This document shows, one piece after another, positions 52,913-60,904 of a DNA stretch of 64,000 nt. This stretch comes from Paludibacteraceae bacterium. Lineage in GTDB: Bacteria > Bacteroidota > Bacteroidia > Bacteroidales > Paludibacteraceae. The number at the start of each line of letters is the position of its first letter. Position 1 is the first letter of the stretch. The translations under genes were made by a program, and so were the position numbers. The stretch lies in assembly GCA_016302585.1 (NCBI GenBank), contig JAEDNI010000001.1, positions 17,412-81,411 of the forward strand, written 5' to 3'. The notes beneath the pieces were generated by a model. It was not told the DNA's origin and did not search any database. It worked only from the letters and a program-made list of their open reading frames with translations.

Positions 52913-52940
52913 AAAAAAAGAGGCACGTGCCTCTTTTTTT
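52912..52940. terminator. Bidirectional intrinsic terminator
   Basis: aaaaaaaaAGAGGCACGTGCCTCTttttttt, a perfect palindrome. Confidence 0.85.
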
Positions 52941-53766
52941 AATGCATAAACTTCGCCAATTTCTTCTGTGCGAGGAAAAGAACCCAATCCGGTGTGTGCT
53001 TCAGCAGCGGTGTGCACAACCAGTTAATCACACCCGGAGTATCGGCTTTCTTACCGCGGAACATCTTCCGTAGGGCCCGTTTCACCAGTTTCTCAGGCGG
53101 AATACTAACCGTCAAATTTACAGCCAGTTTACGGAGCTTGGGTGCTAAGCCGAAAAGGGCCGTATCTACGGCTCCCGGAGCCATCACGGTGATTCCTACG
53201 TTCTGCGGATAGAGTTCGTACCACAGCGACTTGGAGAAATTATAGATGAAGGCTTTGGAGGCATTGTAGGTCTGAATACCCGGCATAGCCATCCACGCCG
53301 ACATACTACTCATATTCAATATATATCCACGCATGCGTTTGCGTCTGCATATACGCGTGTGAGCCTCTTCGGGCGTCAGTTCGCGTTGCAACATATCCTC
53401 GGCAAACAGACGTGTCATCTTCGCTACGGTCATGATATGGAGCTGCAGCATCAGTTCGATACGCTTCATCGAAGTGTTGCAATACTGGTTAAAGAAGAAT
53501 ACGCCCGCGTTATTGATGAGGATATCGATGACATAGCCTTCCGCCTTGCACCAATCGTGCAATTGCTCCGCCGCGTCGGGCAGGCTCAGGTCCGCAAAGT
53601 GCGCGTTCGTCTTCACACCATACTGCGAGGCGAGATCAGCGGCTACTTCCTTCAGTTCCTTCTCTTGGTTGCTTACCAGCAGCAGGTCACAATGATAGTC
53701 ACGCGCCAACTGGGTCGCATACTGCAAGCCGATACCACTACTTGCGCCCGTTACTAATGCTAGCAT
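52939..53766 (-). CDS. Short-chain dehydrogenase/reductase (candidate hydroxysteroid dehydrogenase)
   Basis: VTGASSGIG, NNAG, and the YNASKAF catalytic motif. Last gene of the reductase operon. Confidence 0.85.
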   Translation of the reverse strand: MLALVTGASSGIGLQYATQLARDYHCDLLLVSNQEKELKEVAADLASQYGVKTNAHFADLSLPDAAEQLHDWCKAEGYVIDILINNAGVFFFNQYCNTSMKRIELMLQLHIMTVAKMTRLFAEDMLQRELTPEEAHTRICRRKRMRGYILNMSSMSAWMAMPGIQTYNASKAFIYNFSKSLWYELYPQNVGITVMAPGAVDTALFGLAPKLRKLAVNLTVSIPPEKLVKRALRKMFRGKKADTPGVINWLCTPLLKHTPDWVLFLAQKKLAKFMH

Positions 53767-55024
53767 CTTTCTCTAATTTGGCAATTTCTTTCTTGATACG
53801 CGGCGCGATCACTTCGCCATCGCGCTCTACGCACTCGTGGCACTTCATATTGAGCGTATACATACGTCCTACGCAGTAGTTCGAACGACCGCAGTTTGCA
53901 TGATAATGCGGGTTCTCCTTCACATGCTTTACGAAGTCCGGATCCTTGATCAGTACGTGCGCTATCTGGAAGAGTTCGAAACCTTCATCCATGATCTGCT
54001 GGCAGTTATCGCCGTTCTGCACGCCGCCGACATAAATCAGCGGAATATCGATGTCCTTCAGCGCCTCTTGGAACAGTTTGGCTTTCTCCATGAAATACAA
54101 CTCCTTAAACGGCGAAGTGGGCAACATGATCTGGTGTACGCCCGGAATATTCAAAGCGGCTTTCAGCCACCAAAACGATTTCATCGGCATGTAATGCGCA
54201 AGGGTCTTGTACGGCATGGCACCGCTCAAAATGGTCATCGGCGAACGACTGACTGTACCGCCGGAAAGCACGATACCGTGTACTTTATGCTTCGCGATCT
54301 CGCGGGCTACCTGAATACCCTCTTCGATGCTTACACCACGCCAGCAGTCATCCCACATATTAGTTTTTACCACAACGGCCATGTCGTCTTTTGCATGCTC
54401 CATGACAGCATCCAGCGCCTCGTTAAGAAAACGACAGCGGTTCTCAAAACTACCGCCATACTGGTCGTGACGATGATTCGTACGACGTGCCAAGAACTGC
54501 GACAGCAGGTATGCATGTCCGGCATGAATCTCCACGCAGTCAAATCCGCACTTACGGGCGAAATCAACGGCCTCACCGAATTTCTGAACGAGGTGCTTGA
54601 TCTCTGCTACTTTCAGACGACGATGAATCGTCGGCGAATAGAGGTTAAAGCCATTCGATGCACTTACCGGCATACAATGGCAGGTATAGAAATGCGTCAT
54701 GTTACCGCAGTGGCCCAACTGAATACTGGCCTTCGCGCCTTCCGCATGAATCGCGTCGGTCATCTTCTTCATATCGGGGATGATGGCATCATTGACATAC
54801 AACTGACCATCAAAAGACACACCGTTCAGATCCACCGCACAGTACGCAACAGTCGTCATTCCTACTCCGCCGCGAGCTACGGATACATGATAGTCTTGCA
54901 GTTCTTGGGTCGGCTTGTTCGCACGAGCCATATTCTCAAAAGCCGCGCTGCGGATAAATCGATTCCGCAACGTGATAGGTCCCAATTGGAAGGGAGAGAA
55001 CAATTTATTATCGTTCATTTGCAA
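53738..55024 (-). CDS. Old-yellow-enzyme family NADH:flavin oxidoreductase
   Basis: FSPFQLGPITLRNRFIRSA and VEIHAGHAYLLSQFL. C-terminal Cys cluster HANCGRSNYCVGR...CHEC. Confidence 0.75.
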   Translation of the reverse strand: MQMNDNKLFSPFQLGPITLRNRFIRSAAFENMARANKPTQELQDYHVSVARGGVGMTTVAYCAVDLNGVSFDGQLYVNDAIIPDMKKMTDAIHAEGAKASIQLGHCGNMTHFYTCHCMPVSASNGFNLYSPTIHRRLKVAEIKHLVQKFGEAVDFARKCGFDCVEIHAGHAYLLSQFLARRTNHRHDQYGGSFENRCRFLNEALDAVMEHAKDDMAVVVKTNMWDDCWRGVSIEEGIQVAREIAKHKVHGIVLSGGTVSRSPMTILSGAMPYKTLAHYMPMKSFWWLKAALNIPGVHQIMLPTSPFKELYFMEKAKLFQEALKDIDIPLIYVGGVQNGDNCQQIMDEGFELFQIAHVLIKDPDFVKHVKENPHYHANCGRSNYCVGRMYTLNMKCHECVERDGEVIAPRIKKEIAKLEKDASISNGRK

Positions 55025-55032
55025 TTTGTGAT

Positions 55033-55842
55033 TTAATAAATAAACGGAATAATACGTTTCAGTTTCTTGCGATCAAACTCATCCGGGAACTCTTCCTCGT
55101 ATTTGTGATAGATCGAGTTGGCACGCGGCACAAGGTTGCAGCAGCTGAACCAGAAGAACAACAGACCGGATACAGACCAGGTAAGGATAGCAAAGCCGAG
55201 CCACTCGGTGATCTCACCCAGATAGTTCGCACTCGTCACATACTTATACATACCTTTCTTCGGCAGGTAGTGGTTCGTATCACCCGGTTTACGCAAGTGA
55301 CGAATCACATGATCGGAATGCACATTGATAATCCAGCCAATACAGAAGATCACGGTACCGATGATGAAACGGGGATCAGTTAACCAAGCCTGGGTATAGA
55401 GATGCGAGTAATACGGGTCTTTCGGCGCGATATGGAACAGGAAATAGCCTTGGATATATCCGTTAATCAGATTCCAAATCACCGAGAGGAACATAATAAC
55501 TACCGGCATCTTGCTCTTACCCTTCAGCAGGAAGGGGAAGATAAACGAACGCTGGAAATAATGGAATTCAAAGATCAGGAAGAAGATCCAATAAGGCGCT
55601 TGTTGTACGATCGGCGCCAACGTAGGATTACCCCATGCCTTGAAGTACTCGTACAGCACCACAAAAAATACAGGGCATTCCATCAACAGCCAGCCGGCTT
55701 TGTTGTTCATGGACGGACCCCATTTCTCTGTTCGCATCTTACCGTAACCGGCATCAACGAAATAAAGAGAAACGAAAACGACCAAACCGACCAAAAACAT
55801 GATCATTAACAGGTCGCTAAAAAAGGAGTTTAAAATTTCCAT
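55033..55842 (-). CDS. 3-oxo-5-alpha-steroid 4-dehydrogenase (steroid 5-alpha-reductase) family membrane protein
   Basis: ANYLGEITEWLGFA, and the C-terminus KRIIPFIY resembles the ...IPFIF end of SRD5A. Polytopic. Confidence 0.75.
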   Translation of the reverse strand: MEILNSFFSDLLMIMFLVGLVVFVSLYFVDAGYGKMRTEKWGPSMNNKAGWLLMECPVFFVVLYEYFKAWGNPTLAPIVQQAPYWIFFLIFEFHYFQRSFIFPFLLKGKSKMPVVIMFLSVIWNLINGYIQGYFLFHIAPKDPYYSHLYTQAWLTDPRFIIGTVIFCIGWIINVHSDHVIRHLRKPGDTNHYLPKKGMYKYVTSANYLGEITEWLGFAILTWSVSGLLFFWFSCCNLVPRANSIYHKYEEEFPDEFDRKKLKRIIPFIY

Positions 55843-55902
55843 ATTGTTTGTTATATTAATTTCTGTTGTTCAAACCCGAAATCGTTCGGCAAAAAAAGCG
55901 TA

Positions 55903-55934
55903 CAAAGTTACGAATAAATATTCGTATATACAAA
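55903..55934 (-). promoter_or_regulatory. Promoter (-33 TTTG / -7 TAACTTTG) for the 5AR-OYE-SDR operon
   Basis: The minus strand reads TTTGtatatacgaatatttattcgTAACTTTGtacgc. The leader of about 54 nt contains the hairpin ccgaa/ttcgg. Confidence 0.6.
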
Positions 55935-55940
55935 AAAATC

Positions 55941-56870
55941 TTAAGAATCGGAAACTTTTTCTTGCTTTTGGCATACAAATAAACCGAATATGATTAACCC
56001 CATACCTATCCACTTACCGATCGGCAGGTGTTCGCCGAAGAATAAAAACATCCATAAGGCCGTGAAGGCAGGACGGATATTATTGAAGGCATTGGCTTGC
56101 GTTACACCGATCTTTCGAAGCGCATAGCAGAAGAGGATAAATGCAATCACAGACGCAAAAATGGTCAGATACGCCACGCACCCGAGTGCTATTTGCGTAT
56201 CAAAATTTGAAATCTGGAATCTTAAATCTAAAATCGTTGAAGGTCCTTCGCGCCACAACCAAATCGGAATGAAATACATCAAACTGATCAGTTGGGTGTA
56301 GAACACGAACGAAAGCGCACTGTATTTCTGAGGCGCCTTGCGCATCATAATAGAATCTACCACAGCCGCTGAAACAGCTGCAAAAGCCATGAGAATTCCC
56401 CAGTAGTTACCTATCGAATAATTGGTTGTACCTATGAGCGTCAAAGCGAACACGCCGCCCGTTGAGATCAAAATTCCGAGAATATTGTACTTCGTCACGC
56501 GTTCGCGCAACAGAATGCCCGCAAAGATAGGACTCAGCAGCGGCGAAGTCGAGAGCAGCGTCTCGGCGATCGTCGGGCTGTTCAACGCATCAAACGTAAA
56601 AGTCTCCAATAAATAATACAAAAACGGCTGACACGTACCCGCAAGAAGAAACAGCGGCAGGTCCTTCAGGTCCATCTTCTGCAAACAGAACAAACTGTGT
56701 TTCCTACAGACAAGGCCAATAATAAACATCAGCAACACAGACGGCACAAACCGAAGCACGATCATCGTAAACGGCGGCAGAACGGTCAAAGCTTGTTTGA
56801 TAGCTATACCGCTCACCGACCAGCTCAACATCGATACCAAAAGAGCTACTATAGGAAGGGATTTCTGCAT
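55941..56870 (-). CDS. EamA/DMT family transporter
   Basis: 309 aa, 10 TM segments in two halves. A heptamer array lies in the central loop. Confidence 0.8.
   Translation of the reverse strand: MQKSLPIVALLVSMLSWSVSGIAIKQALTVLPPFTMIVLRFVPSVLLMFIIGLVCRKHSLFCLQKMDLKDLPLFLLAGTCQPFLYYLLETFTFDALNSPTIAETLLSTSPLLSPIFAGILLRERVTKYNILGILISTGGVFALTLIGTTNYSIGNYWGILMAFAAVSAAVVDSIMMRKAPQKYSALSFVFYTQLISLMYFIPIWLWREGPSTILDLRFQISNFDTQIALGCVAYLTIFASVIAFILFCYALRKIGVTQANAFNNIRPAFTALWMFLFFGEHLPIGKWIGMGLIIFGLFVCQKQEKVSDS
56203..56237. repeat. Heptamer array AAATCTN x5 inside the EamA CDS
   Basis: aaatttg aaatctg gaatctt aaatcta aaatcgt. It encodes LDLRFQISNFD in the inter-domain loop. Confidence 0.85.
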
Positions 56871-56875
56871 TTAAA

Positions 56876-57760
56876 TTAGAGCGAGCTTGGCCACGTATTG
56901 TTTTCTATTCCCGCTAAACGACATATCGTTGCGTGTGTCTCTTTCAATAAACGTTCGGTCTCTACGGCACGAGGTTTCGTAGTATCCGGATAGATAGGTG
57001 CCCCGATAACAACCTGCGTCAAGGGTTCATCCTTCGGTCCAAACAGACGCCATATTCCTGTCCGCTCGCGATAGGTAACTGCGAACGGAATGATAGGTTT
57101 GTTGTACTTATATGCCATCGTAAACGCACCTTTCTGGAACGGACGAAGCGGTTTATACCAATCCCAGCGCTTAGCCTCGGGGAAGATATGAAACCAATAA
57201 CCCTCTTTGTCATACGCATCGAACGCCGCATTAAAGGCTTTCATTGCACTCAAACCCGCTTCGGCGGAAGGAATAGGTATTCCGCCTACAATACGCAGAT
57301 AGAACTGGTCCTTGGTGCGGAAATTCGGTGCAAACATCGGTATACGCGTGCGCGGCGAAGCATGAAAAGTGGTCAATACAGAGGCGCAGTCATGGCGGTA
57401 ACAGTGGTTCGCGATGGTGATCGCACCGCGTGAAAGGTCGAACTGCTTCAGCCATCGACGAACACCACAGGACGAACGACGCCATTTTGTCTCGCCCTCA
57501 ATACGCCAGCGCAACCCGTATCTAATGCGCAAAATCCATCCCAAGATACGCAGCACAAAGCTATAGCCATACCACACGCGCAGCCTGTTACGCCAAGACG
57601 GATCATAATACGGATAGGTAGCATCTACCGGCAGATACTCCCGATCATAAACCGGCTTATACAAACCTACATACGGGTCGTCCTCCGGATAACTCATCGT
57701 CACGGGCGGTACATACGTACCTTCCGTCACTTTCAAATCAGTATATCGCTTATTTTCCAT
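56876..57760 (-). CDS. Lysophospholipid acyltransferase family protein
   Basis: HX4D motif ANHCYRHD and FPEAKRW. Confidence 0.7.
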   Translation of the reverse strand: MENKRYTDLKVTEGTYVPPVTMSYPEDDPYVGLYKPVYDREYLPVDATYPYYDPSWRNRLRVWYGYSFVLRILGWILRIRYGLRWRIEGETKWRRSSCGVRRWLKQFDLSRGAITIANHCYRHDCASVLTTFHASPRTRIPMFAPNFRTKDQFYLRIVGGIPIPSAEAGLSAMKAFNAAFDAYDKEGYWFHIFPEAKRWDWYKPLRPFQKGAFTMAYKYNKPIIPFAVTYRERTGIWRLFGPKDEPLTQVVIGAPIYPDTTKPRAVETERLLKETHATICRLAGIENNTWPSSL

Positions 57761-57803
57761 TCACCAATCACCAATTACCAATTACCAATCACCATTCACC
57801 AAT
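57755..57803 (-). repeat. Heptamer array ATTGGTN x7 (minus-strand reading) spanning the HAD stop and the acyltransferase start
   Basis: The + strand reads ttccatt caccaat caccaat taccaat taccaat caccatt caccaat. It encodes the HAD C-terminus LLVNGDW*, then a 21-nt spacer, then the next ATG. Confidence 0.9.
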
Positions 57804-58405
57804 AAAAACTTCGCTCCTACACTTCGCGCTGCAGCTCCGTCTTTCTCATCGCGGTCGCCCACAAACAATGTCGTCTCAGCCTCCGCTCCCATCAATTCCA
57901 ATACGCGGCGCGCGCAGTACTCCGAAGGCTTCAACGAACCCATTTCGGGAGCGGAAACCAGCAGTTCAAACTGACTCGGATCAACATGCAGCACTTCCAG
58001 TTTCTCTACCACACAGCCGTAATCCGAGAAGATGGCCATCTTGATGCCTCTTTCCTTGCACTCGGAAATAAGGTCCATCACTTCATGGCGAATCGGCTGA
58101 CGCTTGGCGATCAGACGAATCATTGCCGGCATATACACCAGTTCGTACCATTTAGCGGCTATCTTCGCATTCCACCAGTGGCCGCGAGCCATCATATGAA
58201 AGAAACAGTCATAAAACTCCTCTCCCGTCGCAAACTGCAGATAGTGCATGTTACGACGCGCCAGACGTTCGGACGTCAAAAGAGGCAGACACCAAAAGAG
58301 ACGTCTCACCATTCTACGCGCTAAGCCGCGTTTGTCATATAATGTACCATCAAGATCGAGAACGACGCTCTTGACGCCGTTTAGCACGTGCTTTTTGTCT
58401 GTCAT
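57782..58405 (-). CDS. HAD family hydrolase
   Basis: VVLDLDGTLY (motif I) and VGDRDEKDG (motif IV). Confidence 0.8.
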   Translation of the reverse strand: MTDKKHVLNGVKSVVLDLDGTLYDKRGLARRMVRRLFWCLPLLTSERLARRNMHYLQFATGEEFYDCFFHMMARGHWWNAKIAAKWYELVYMPAMIRLIAKRQPIRHEVMDLISECKERGIKMAIFSDYGCVVEKLEVLHVDPSQFELLVSAPEMGSLKPSEYCARRVLELMGAEAETTLFVGDRDEKDGAAARSVGAKFLLVNGDW

Positions 58406-60194
58406 CGATTTTATTTGCTCTTTCTATAACGAGCTCGCTAATGCGTTCGAAACTATCCTCCAAGCGTTGCAACATATTAAATTTCGTCCGACGTTTCTCG
58501 TCCTGCATCAGCAGGTTAAACTTAAACTGACCATCGCGGAATCCGTCCTTCAGACACGCTGCCTTGAAGCGCGCATAGGCGTTCGAAAGCAAGATATGGG
58601 TCTCCGGTTCATGTAAGCGATAGGACTGCCGTTTACTCTCATACTCGAGGTTGATATGTTGCAGTTTCTCGTCCACCACTTTCGTAAACGCCTCGGCCTG
58701 TTCCTGACGAATCTTCTCGTTCTCAAACTCGTAGTAGAAGTGGTATTTCGACTCCTCCACATCCGCAAAGCCCACGAAGAACTTCGTCTTGATGCCCGTC
58801 TCCTCTTCCGCCTGATGCACAGCGTTCATGAACTGCAGTTCATACAGTTTCTCGCCTGTCATGGAGACAATACCATTCACTTTCGACACCATATGAACCG
58901 TAGGCGTATTCTTGTACCTTCCGCCCACCTCCACCAGGTCATTCATGTTATAGCGGTACAGACCCGAATAGGTCGTCACATACGCGCAGTAGCGTTTGCC
59001 CAACTCCAATTCATCGATCTGAAGGAAGTGTTTACGGGGACTGTCTAACTCGCTCTCCTCAACAAACTCATAGTAATGGAACTGCGGGAAGAGCACACTC
59101 TCATTCGTATCATCCAGCGAGAAGCCGAAACGGCACTCCGTCGCAATATATCCCAACTCCTGATAGAAGGTCTTATCCCAGTCAAACTGGTCCATGTACT
59201 TATCCATGTAGATCTTCGTGTTACCGCATTTCCACGTACTGAGGTATTGCAACCAAGGCCAGAAATCCTTCGGATACATATGTCCCGTCTCCTCGAGAAT
59301 CTTACGCAACTCTGCGGCACGTTCCGGTTTGGGTGAGATATACTGGTCTAACTCCGCACGAATCTCAAACGGAATATCGAAGTTCTCGCTGATACCGCCT
59401 GTCTCGATATCATGAAGCATCTCCTCAAGGTTCTCATTCATCACGCGCAGCAACTCCAATATCGTCGAGGGGTTGGCTGTGGCCCATAGCGTCACATCTC
59501 GATGCTGAAGCGCCAAACGCATCAAGGTATAGTTACGTGCACCATAATCCGGAATGGACATCACGGCCGCTGGACCCGTATAATGCTTCTTGATAATAGA
59601 CGGAATATCGCGAACCAACACACCACTCACCGAGCCATACAAGGTACCGTCAGGAGCATAACCTTCGCATTCCTTGCCTACCGTCGTGAAGATATGACCG
59701 CCAAAGATGCGGCTGCGGTGCTTAACAAAGTTCCACGTCCAGATATGACTCATCTTGCCGTACACATCCTTCAGGTACTTATGGGTCATCGGAATCCATT
59801 TCGGTTCACTCGTCGTACCCGATGTGGTAGCATACATATCCGGTTTACCCGGAAACAGCACATTCTCTTCGCCGTTCTTATGACGCTCCACATACGGACG
59901 CAAGGTCTCAAAACTATTGTTTACCGGCACATACAAGCGATACAGACGGAACAAATCCTCCGCCGTCGTAGCACTTAAGATACGATCAAAATGGTGCTCC
60001 TTGCCATACACGGTATCACGCGAAATAGTCAGAATGTCACGCAGCGTCTTCTCCGCCGTGTGACGCGGCTTACGGCTCCAGAAGCGCAAACGGACAGTCT
60101 GAGAACCGCCTACCAACCAAAGCATGAAATTAATTAACCAGGGATAAGGTAAGGCTCTGCCTTCCTGGTCAACATAGGGTTTTATCTTTGCCAT
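58350..60194 (-). CDS. GH3 (auxin-responsive promoter) family adenylating enzyme homologue
   Basis: About 614 aa. ATTSGTTSEPKWIP is an AMP-forming motif typical of the GH3 family. Basic C-terminal tail. I prefer the start at MAKIKPYV (60194) over 60233. Confidence 0.7.
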   Translation of the reverse strand: MAKIKPYVDQEGRALPYPWLINFMLWLVGGSQTVRLRFWSRKPRHTAEKTLRDILTISRDTVYGKEHHFDRILSATTAEDLFRLYRLYVPVNNSFETLRPYVERHKNGEENVLFPGKPDMYATTSGTTSEPKWIPMTHKYLKDVYGKMSHIWTWNFVKHRSRIFGGHIFTTVGKECEGYAPDGTLYGSVSGVLVRDIPSIIKKHYTGPAAVMSIPDYGARNYTLMRLALQHRDVTLWATANPSTILELLRVMNENLEEMLHDIETGGISENFDIPFEIRAELDQYISPKPERAAELRKILEETGHMYPKDFWPWLQYLSTWKCGNTKIYMDKYMDQFDWDKTFYQELGYIATECRFGFSLDDTNESVLFPQFHYYEFVEESELDSPRKHFLQIDELELGKRYCAYVTTYSGLYRYNMNDLVEVGGRYKNTPTVHMVSKVNGIVSMTGEKLYELQFMNAVHQAEEETGIKTKFFVGFADVEESKYHFYYEFENEKIRQEQAEAFTKVVDEKLQHINLEYESKRQSYRLHEPETHILLSNAYARFKAACLKDGFRDGQFKFNLLMQDEKRRTKFNMLQRLEDSFERISELVIERANKIDDRQKARAKRRQERRSRS

Positions 60195-60202
60195 ACGTCT
60201 TG

Positions 60203-60904
60203 TTATTTCTCTATTGTATAAGCGTAGTTGCATACGCGGATGAACGCCTCATACCCGCCGCGCACCTTGCGATACATACGCGTGATACGCCAGGCGTTCT
60301 GCGCATAAGGAACGACCGATCCGTATTTAGTCACCGCTTCCCAGTTAATCTCCGACTCCACATTCGATTCTGTCTCGTAATTACGCATCAGCAACTCGTC
60401 GTTATAATACATCTCGATGGAACTGATATGTACTGCGGATACATTGTCATATGCATACGTGCTCTTTACGGTATAGCCGAAGAACTGTTTCTTAGAAGCT
60501 ATCACATCCACCGATGCATTCTCCACATGCGCCTCTGTCACATCGTCGTTCTGCATGGAGGTAGAAGTAAGCAACGCCTTACACTCCACATCACATTGAC
60601 CCAACAAGTTGATGCGCGCCATGGCATTCGCTTGCGCTTCAGCTTCTTCTAAAGACGGACAAACCGACGAAATGCCTTCGCCGATAATATATTTATGCGA
60701 TAGCTCCCCCTCCGCATCGTATTGCACGTTCATCGTCTGCTCTATCTGCTCCGCCATAGGTTGAGCATCGGGAAAAGCACGCCAACCCTCACGGGACAAA
60801 CGCATGGCTTCCTTACGAACCGCCCTACTCACCGCCTGAACTTGAACCGACACGCCCAACAGGCATACCATCGCTATTCCAATTATAAGTCTATTTGTCT
60901 TCAT
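60203..60904 (-). CDS. Secreted hypothetical protein (233 aa)
   Basis: Signal peptide MKTNRLIIGIAMVCLLGVSVQVQA. I recognise no family. It is preceded by a repeat-filled leader. Confidence 0.55.
   Translation of the reverse strand: MKTNRLIIGIAMVCLLGVSVQVQAVSRAVRKEAMRLSREGWRAFPDAQPMAEQIEQTMNVQYDAEGELSHKYIIGEGISSVCPSLEEAEAQANAMARINLLGQCDVECKALLTSTSMQNDDVTEAHVENASVDVIASKKQFFGYTVKSTYAYDNVSAVHISSIEMYYNDELLMRNYETESNVESEINWEAVTKYGSVVPYAQNAWRITRMYRKVRGGYEAFIRVCNYAYTIEK

Follow-up and report, generated by a model that had tools for sequence, protein, structure and literature searches.

We analyzed a 64,000-nucleotide stretch of DNA (hereafter, the window) from a Paludibacteraceae metagenome-assembled genome (MAG; GenBank assembly GCA_016302585.1, contig JAEDNI010000001.1, positions 17,412–81,411; genome size 1.63 Mb, 90.8% complete), focusing on a trio of minus-strand genes. 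In order of transcription, these encode a steroid 5-alpha-reductase homologue (5AR), an Old Yellow Enzyme (OYE), and a short-chain dehydrogenase/reductase (SDR), and they are flanked by a Bacteroidetes-type promoter and a palindromic terminator. The features, in window coordinates, are as follows.

55903–55934, minus strand: promoter of the Bacteroidetes sigma-AB type, TTTG-N20-TAACTTTG (exact pattern match).
55909–55926, minus strand: operator-like dyad, TACGAATA-TT-TATTCGTA, in the promoter spacer, with its last two bases being the TA of the -7 box.
55033–55842, minus strand: 5AR, an SRD5A-type membrane steroid 5-alpha-reductase of 269 amino acids (PF02544).
53738–55018, minus strand: OYE (‘5BR’, for 5-beta-reductase), a short Old Yellow Enzyme flavoprotein of 426 amino acids counted from the ATG (PF00724).
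52939–53766, minus strand: classical SDR of 275 amino acids, subfamily SDR_A as defined below (PF00106).
52913–52940, no strand assigned: palindromic, bidirectional intrinsic terminator, AAAAAAAGAGGCACGTGCCTCTTTTTTT, with a 12-pair stem.

The genes are tightly packed, with 14 nt between the 5AR stop codon and the OYE ATG (the ATG at 55018 was used as the start, the open reading frame list placing it at a TTG at 55024) and a 29-nt overlap between the OYE and SDR genes. Upstream of 5AR, the -33 box (TTTG) occupies 55934–55931 and the -7 box (TAACTTTG) 55910–55903. Promoter patterns of this type occur six times in the window compared to 1.08 expected from shuffled sequences, and a promoter of the same form lies 5' of 5AR in 64 of 80 related loci. 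At the other end, A and T runs flank the terminator stem on either side, and the terminator sits between the SDR gene and a convergent S41 peptidase gene and serves both. A first-pass annotation of the window had described three overlapping or adjacent minus-strand genes with their own promoter and a palindromic terminator, and this layout was recovered in full: the open reading frames lie where it had placed them, the promoter matches on the minus strand, and the terminator stem is found when read from 52940 to 52913. Its family assignments for the three proteins (SRD5A-like, OYE with a C-terminal Cys cluster, and classical SDR) were likewise borne out by the domain matches given below. The trio very probably forms a single operon, served by a promoter and a terminator of its own, and belongs to a Bacteroidales cassette for modification of the steroid A-ring.

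Homologues of 5AR were sought in 400 Bacteroidales genomes, sampled evenly over families. About 41 of these encode a 5AR with 46–82% identity to that of the window, and about 45 a homologue with 33–45% identity. We compared 40 loci from this sample (21 of the higher and 19 of the lower identity class) and found an OYE gene directly after 5AR in 19 of the 21 loci of the higher class (46–60% identity) but in none of the 19 of the lower class (33–44% identity). The OYEs that follow the higher-class 5ARs are 47–55% identical to the window OYE. In a maximum-likelihood tree of 5AR, the two classes separate with a Shimodaira-Hasegawa-like approximate likelihood ratio test (SH-aLRT) value of 99, and the window and Parabacteroides merdae both fall in the OYE-linked clade. 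The 5AR-OYE pair is kept across Bacteroidales families, with OYE-linked genomes including Parabacteroides acidifaciens, Barnesiella viscericola, B. propionica, Coprobacter secundus, and Ca. Caccoplasma.

The published counterpart is the gene cluster for isoallolithocholic acid (isoalloLCA) in P. merdae and Bacteroides dorei. A P. merdae isolate contig (GCA_009719975.1) carries consecutive genes for a 253-amino-acid 5AR, a 408-amino-acid OYE, and a 283-amino-acid SDR; in its arrangement, this trio matches Parmer_04016–18 (04016 being 5AR), with the SDR assigned to Parmer_04018 by position. Deletion of Parmer_04016–18 abolished isoalloLCA formation in P. merdae, the B. dorei proteins Bacdor_03091 and Bacdor_03090 have 5AR and 5BR activity, respectively, the purified 3-beta-HSDH (HSDH, hydroxysteroid dehydrogenase) of B. 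dorei is Bacdor_03089, and 3-oxolithocholic acid induces the clusters of both species (Li et al., bioRxiv 10.1101/2021.01.08.425963). In PMC10382948, the isoalloLCA (‘indirect allo-bile-acid’) cluster is also credited to Sato et al. 2021. The window has its genes in the order and direction seen in both P. merdae and B. dorei (5AR, short OYE 5BR, SDR). Alignment with the proteins of the P. merdae isolate gave 55% identity over 262 amino acids for 5AR (E 1e-100) and 50% over 415 amino acids for the OYE (E 2e-153), whereas identity falls to 22% for the SDR, which belongs to another subfamily. The first-pass annotation had likened the trio to the published 5AR/5BR/3-beta-HSDH enzymes; this comparison therefore stands for 5AR and 5BR, which are orthologues of the P. 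merdae cluster genes, and fails for the third gene. The hosts also differ, the P. merdae cluster coming from a human gut strain and the window from a rumen-type Paludibacteraceae MAG.

The window 5AR contains NYLGEITEWLGFA, ends in IPFIY, and matches PF02544 with an E-value of 6e-41 (140.3 bits, cut-off 22.6). Its PDB matches include PbSRD5A (7C83, 1e-53) and human SRD5A2 (7BW1, 4e-40), with alignments that span the full length. Motifs common to these two proteins and the window 5AR are the Glu of QEL/MEC, the Tyr of HYF, NxHSD...RxLRKPG, and NYLGE, which in the window take the forms MEC, HYF, HSDH..RHLRKPGD, and NYLGEITEW (aligned to 7BW1 and 7C83). In SRD5A-type enzymes, the Glu and Tyr are catalytic residues holding the 3-oxo group; the window 5AR has both, along with most of the motifs for NADPH binding. 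Unlike SRD5A2 and PbSRD5A, the window 5AR is a bacterial orthologue whose gene is tied to that of a flavin partner. The match to the TECR homologue art-1 (E 5.6e-9) is far weaker than that to SRD5A2 or PbSRD5A, and by this comparison of PDB matches 5AR is not closer to enoyl-CoA or polyprenol reductases (TECR/SRD5A3) than to SRD5A1/2.

The OYE matches PF00724 with an E-value of 4e-56 (191 bits, cut-off 27) and consists of a flavin mononucleotide (FMN) TIM barrel followed by a C-x5-C-x10-C tail, without flavin adenine dinucleotide (FAD) or NAD(P) domains. The His-x2-His-x-Tyr site (H165, H168, and Y170), which aligns to HAAHGY of 3KRZ, is invariant in 27 orthologues, as is C104. Given this site, the enzyme could act on a 3-oxo steroid by adding or removing a hydride at C5 together with a proton at C4. 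Four cysteines lie near the C-terminus (C376, C382, C393, and C396), and the first three are invariant in the same 27 orthologues. The tail aligns at the 4Fe-4S site of Escherichia coli FadH with the second Cys missing (C-x2-C-x3-C-x11-C in FadH; C376-x5-C382-x10-C393 in the window). The best NCBIfam match is BaiCD (NF041087), covering the N-terminal part only (182 bits, cut-off 825). BaiCD and FadH are the best family and PDB matches of the window OYE, through the FMN TIM barrel at its N-terminus alone, but they are about 640–670 amino acids long and carry FAD/NAD(P)H domains, whereas the window protein ends at residue 426 and has none. The OYE is related to BaiCD and FadH but truncated, and because all 27 orthologues have the short form, it is normal for the cassette. 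An AlphaFold2 model (29 sequences) reached a mean predicted local distance difference test score of 59.9, with values <50 in the C-terminal Cys region, and was discarded. A PDB search with the C-terminal 100 residues gave no meaningful match.

The SDR matches PF00106 (E 3.5e-33, 115 bits) and has the motifs TGASSGIG, NNAG, and YNASK, with S153, Y167, and K171 invariant. It shares 37–48% identity with the SDR that follows the OYE in Barnesiella, Coprobacter, and others. We label the subfamily of the window SDR_A and that of P. merdae SDR_B. Both occur downstream of 5BR and, where both are present, SDR_A lies between 5BR and SDR_B. The cluster takes the following forms.

5AR-5BR-SDR_A-SDR_B: found in Barnesiella and Coprobacter as well as in seven further lineages of the sample.
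5AR-5BR-SDR_B: Parabacteroides and Caccoplasma.
5AR-5BR-SDR_A: the window, 80 related loci (with the trio in about 75 of the 80), and a few other lineages.

In the four-gene form of Barnesiella viscericola and Coprobacter secundus, the SDR type of the window stands right after 5BR (42–48% identity) and SDR_B is added, whereas the window operon stops at the terminator past SDR_A. No SDR_B was found in the window's own genome, at its 90.8% completeness (best match 27% identity, E 3e-11), in the 80 related loci, or in five 100%-complete genomes of kin (same genus and sister family). The window SDR also contains a 16-residue insert, ELTPEEAHTRICRRKR, at about residues 129–144 (window 53335–53382), before strand beta-5. 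This insert is lineage-specific, being present in some close relatives (275-amino-acid forms) and absent from others (259 amino acids) and from all other families. In two rumen relatives, a second SDR_A paralogue (48% identical) lies a few hundred bases past the first (L009:9677–10456 and L074:9669–10454).

We found no published activity or assay of SDR_A in the literature. The ‘putative 17-beta-HSDH’ described by Li et al. probably corresponds to SDR_A, and a JGI annotation names the Coprobacter SDR_A ‘hydroxysteroid dehydrogenase 12’ (HSD17B12-like by that label). As to which enzyme of Sato et al., 3-beta-HSDH-I or -II, forms isoalloLCA, secondary sources conflict, and these labels are not mapped to SDR_A or SDR_B. 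Because no SDR_A assay was found and the Sato labels conflict, the name 3-beta-HSDH is unsupported for the window SDR. Accordingly, neither 3-beta-HSDH activity nor isoalloLCA as the final product is supported for this trio.

The dyad in the 5AR promoter is shared among relatives. Among 64 5AR promoters of kin, 25 carry a perfect 8+8 dyad at this place and seven more a 7/8 dyad, compared to one of 102 other promoter-like sites of those loci, and that one is probably a 5AR promoter too. The half-sites covary among kin (CGAA/TTCG, CAAA/TTTG, and CTAA/TTAG). This is the pattern of a predicted operator for a dimeric regulator and suggests that the operon is under repressor control. Across the window's genome, the pattern TACGAAWW-NN-WWTTCGTA occurs four times (two exact and two with one mismatch) and its reversed-pattern control not once. 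These sites, each just 5' of a -7 box, are as follows.

55909–55926 of the window: the 5AR promoter.
5549–5566 of contig C2 of the same genome (G000:C2:5549-5566).
38244–38261 of contig C16 (G000:C16:38244-38261).
14935–14952 of contig C27 (G000:C27:14935-14952).

The three sites outside the 5AR promoter precede a gene for a 1550-amino-acid TamB/AsmA-like protein, a capsule-type locus (UDP-glucose dehydrogenases, EpsG, and GT2), and one or more secreted proteins without a Pfam match. The four sites may form a small regulon of one regulator. The surroundings of the P. merdae cluster differ: an RND pump and a response regulator lie upstream of it, whereas the window has neither and its promoter has a dyad of its own. 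On the P. merdae contig (L125:1–4229), this upstream region encodes an RND efflux pump (MFP and AcrB), a P-II-like protein, and an OmpR-type response regulator whose gene overlaps the start of 5AR.

The closest loci (97–99% protein identity) come from the rumen MAGs RUG631 and an SRR873603 bin, followed by ‘Paludibacteraceae bacterium’ MAGs from the forestomachs of sheep, cattle, goat, buffalo, yak, and deer. More distant carriers of the trio come from horse, pig, and human guts. Among the sampled genomes, the GTDB family of the window's genome is represented by just one further genus, in a Microbacter MAG, consistent with Paludibacteraceae. Among rumen kin, the ratio of nonsynonymous to synonymous substitution rates (dN/dS) is 0.03–0.10 for all three genes, with dS saturated, and 5AR, OYE, and SDR are under strong purifying selection. 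Bile enters the gut past the forestomachs and does not reach the rumen, and bile acids are therefore unlikely to be the main substrates for a rumen population. The rumen origin of the nearest relatives thus weakens a bile-acid framing and, together with the strong purifying selection, implies that bile acids may be neither the sole nor the principal substrate. No canonical bile salt hydrolase was found in the 90.8%-complete genome. Its sole match to the choloylglycine hydrolase family (PF02275), a protein encoded on contig C17 (G000:C17; L123:1150–2352), was rejected as a bile salt hydrolase and is a C45 AAT-type autoproteolytic acyltransferase/hydrolase.

Based on these results, a mechanism can be proposed in which the order of steps follows that shown for relatives. 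The 5BR would interconvert 3-oxo-5-beta-steroids and 3-oxo-delta-4 steroids at its His-His-Tyr/FMN site, yielding the delta-4 enone or running back from it, and the NADPH-dependent 5AR would reduce the delta-4 bond to give the 5-alpha (flat, ‘allo’) form, both as expected from orthology. The SDR, to judge from its family, would then carry out a hydroxyl/oxo step by oxidising or reducing a ring hydroxyl or oxo group, most likely at C3. Since the SDR is of the second type, the products would be 3-oxo-allo steroids and some hydroxy epimer, not necessarily isoalloLCA. Candidate substrates are 3-oxo bile acids where bile is met and neutral plant or host steroids in the rumen.

Several points weigh against this picture of a steroid A-ring cassette. 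The OYE Cys tail is one Cys short of the canonical 4Fe-4S motif, and with no bile in the rumen the validated bile-acid substrates may not be the native ones. Moreover, if Bacdor_03089 is of the SDR_A type, the full isoalloLCA pathway would hold after all. All 120 matches listed for a search with the P. merdae 5BR come from Parabacteroides, at identities of at least 87%.

With regard to substrates, it is possible, although we hold it tentatively, that the rumen cassette acts mainly on plant steroids (sapogenins and phytosterol-derived 4-en-3-ones) and gives rise to the 5-alpha/5-beta and 3-alpha/3-beta products of rumen contents. The closest kin come from the rumen, reticulum, omasum, and abomasum, the clade is under strong purifying selection, and the lineage lacks SDR_B, the type tested on bile acids. 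According to PMC10385484 (citing Meagher et al.), diosgenin-type saponins are converted in the rumen to smilagenone, smilagenin, epismilagenin, and tigogenin; such a conversion requires 5-beta and 5-alpha reduction of delta-4-3-ketosteroids and 3-oxo reduction, corresponding to the three enzyme types encoded here. This support is, however, purely circumstantial. The sample names of MAGs are no proof of niche, related lineages bearing the trio occur in the hindguts of horse, pig, and human, and the enzymes may simply be promiscuous.

Rather unlikely is a complete isoalloLCA pathway (5BR, 5AR, and 3-beta-HSDH) acting on bile acids, with the window SDR as the 3-beta-HSDH. That 5AR and 5BR have their orthologues in the P. 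merdae cluster is consistent with this pathway, some other SDR may provide the 3-beta-HSDH activity, and relatives also occur in hindgut samples, as judged from sample titles. In addition, a 2026 paper labels the cluster of an Egerieousia MAG 5AR/5BR/3-beta-HSDH via the references of Sato et al. The SDR itself argues otherwise, being so distant from that of P. merdae and a member of another subfamily, one found alongside the P. merdae type in the same clusters. Our finding no SDR_A assay in the literature, the rumen MAGs as nearest relatives, and the failure to find a canonical bile salt hydrolase in the genome also count against this pathway.

Upstream of the trio lies a block of genes of lipid type on the same strand.

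55941–60233, minus strand: GH3-family adenylating enzyme, HAD hydrolase, acyltransferase, and EamA transporter.

This block stands beside the trio in most loci of its own family and in none of the other families sampled. The GH3 protein matches the lyso-ornithine lipid synthetase OlsH weakly (88 bits, cut-off 620). A functional tie between trio and block was rejected because the block is kept only within the family and the trio has its own promoter. In eukaryotic very-long-chain fatty acid elongation, an SRD5A-family reductase (TECR) is paired with HSD17B12. An endogenous lipid role tied to these upstream genes, with 5AR as an enoyl or polyprenol reductase and an HSD17B12-like SDR as a 3-ketoacyl reductase, could appeal to this pairing, to the ‘hydroxysteroid dehydrogenase 12’ label of the Coprobacter SDR_A, and to the conservation of the block within the family, but is highly improbable given the much stronger match of 5AR to SRD5A2 than to art-1, its orthology to a 5AR tested on bile acids, the independence of trio and block in other families, and the accessory nature of the cassette (the roughly 41 carriers among the 400 sampled genomes).

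Beyond the OYE-linked clade, stand-alone 5AR paralogues (33–45% identity, no OYE neighbour) form a clade in other Bacteroidales families (L102–L120, e.g., G268, a Microbacter MAG from the same family as the window's genome) and are rarely sampled, as their 90% clusters hold one to three members. Genomes of one family (f40: G039, G165, G267, and G349; loci L087, L121, and L102–L104) have two 5AR copies, one of each class, neither of which lies beside an OYE gene. Homologues of 5AR are also listed for Neocallimastigomycota (rumen fungi) and Metamonada (Li et al., bioRxiv 10.1101/2021.01.08.425963, Fig. S5B legend), which hints at transfer of the 5AR gene to anaerobic gut eukaryotes.

The cluster has been reported in most human gut Bacteroidales (PMC10942478) and annotated in primate MAGs (PMC13682396). 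Because earlier work describes it as widespread in gut Bacteroidales (PMC10942478; Li et al.), its presence here is ordinary, and what is new, modestly, is the promoter dyad, the setting in the rumen, and a lineage with SDR_A only. This holds for an entire rumen-associated lineage, and automatic annotation that labels the third gene ‘3-beta-HSDH’ and infers isoalloLCA production from it over-reads it. As a more specific and still doubtful proposal, the SDR_B-less cassette of rumen Paludibacteraceae would supply the enzymes with which the A-ring of plant steroids (diosgenin-type sapogenins and phytosterol enones) is hydrogenated and epimerised in the rumen, with SDR_A setting the 3-hydroxy stereochemistry and a repressor acting on the TACGAAAT-N2-ATTTCGTA dyad. 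Sapogenins derived from plant saponins in the rumen are linked to a photosensitisation disease in sheep, and we know of no enzymes identified for this rumen conversion. That strong purifying selection maintains the cassette in bacteria of the foregut, where they meet little or no bile, points to other steroid substrates.

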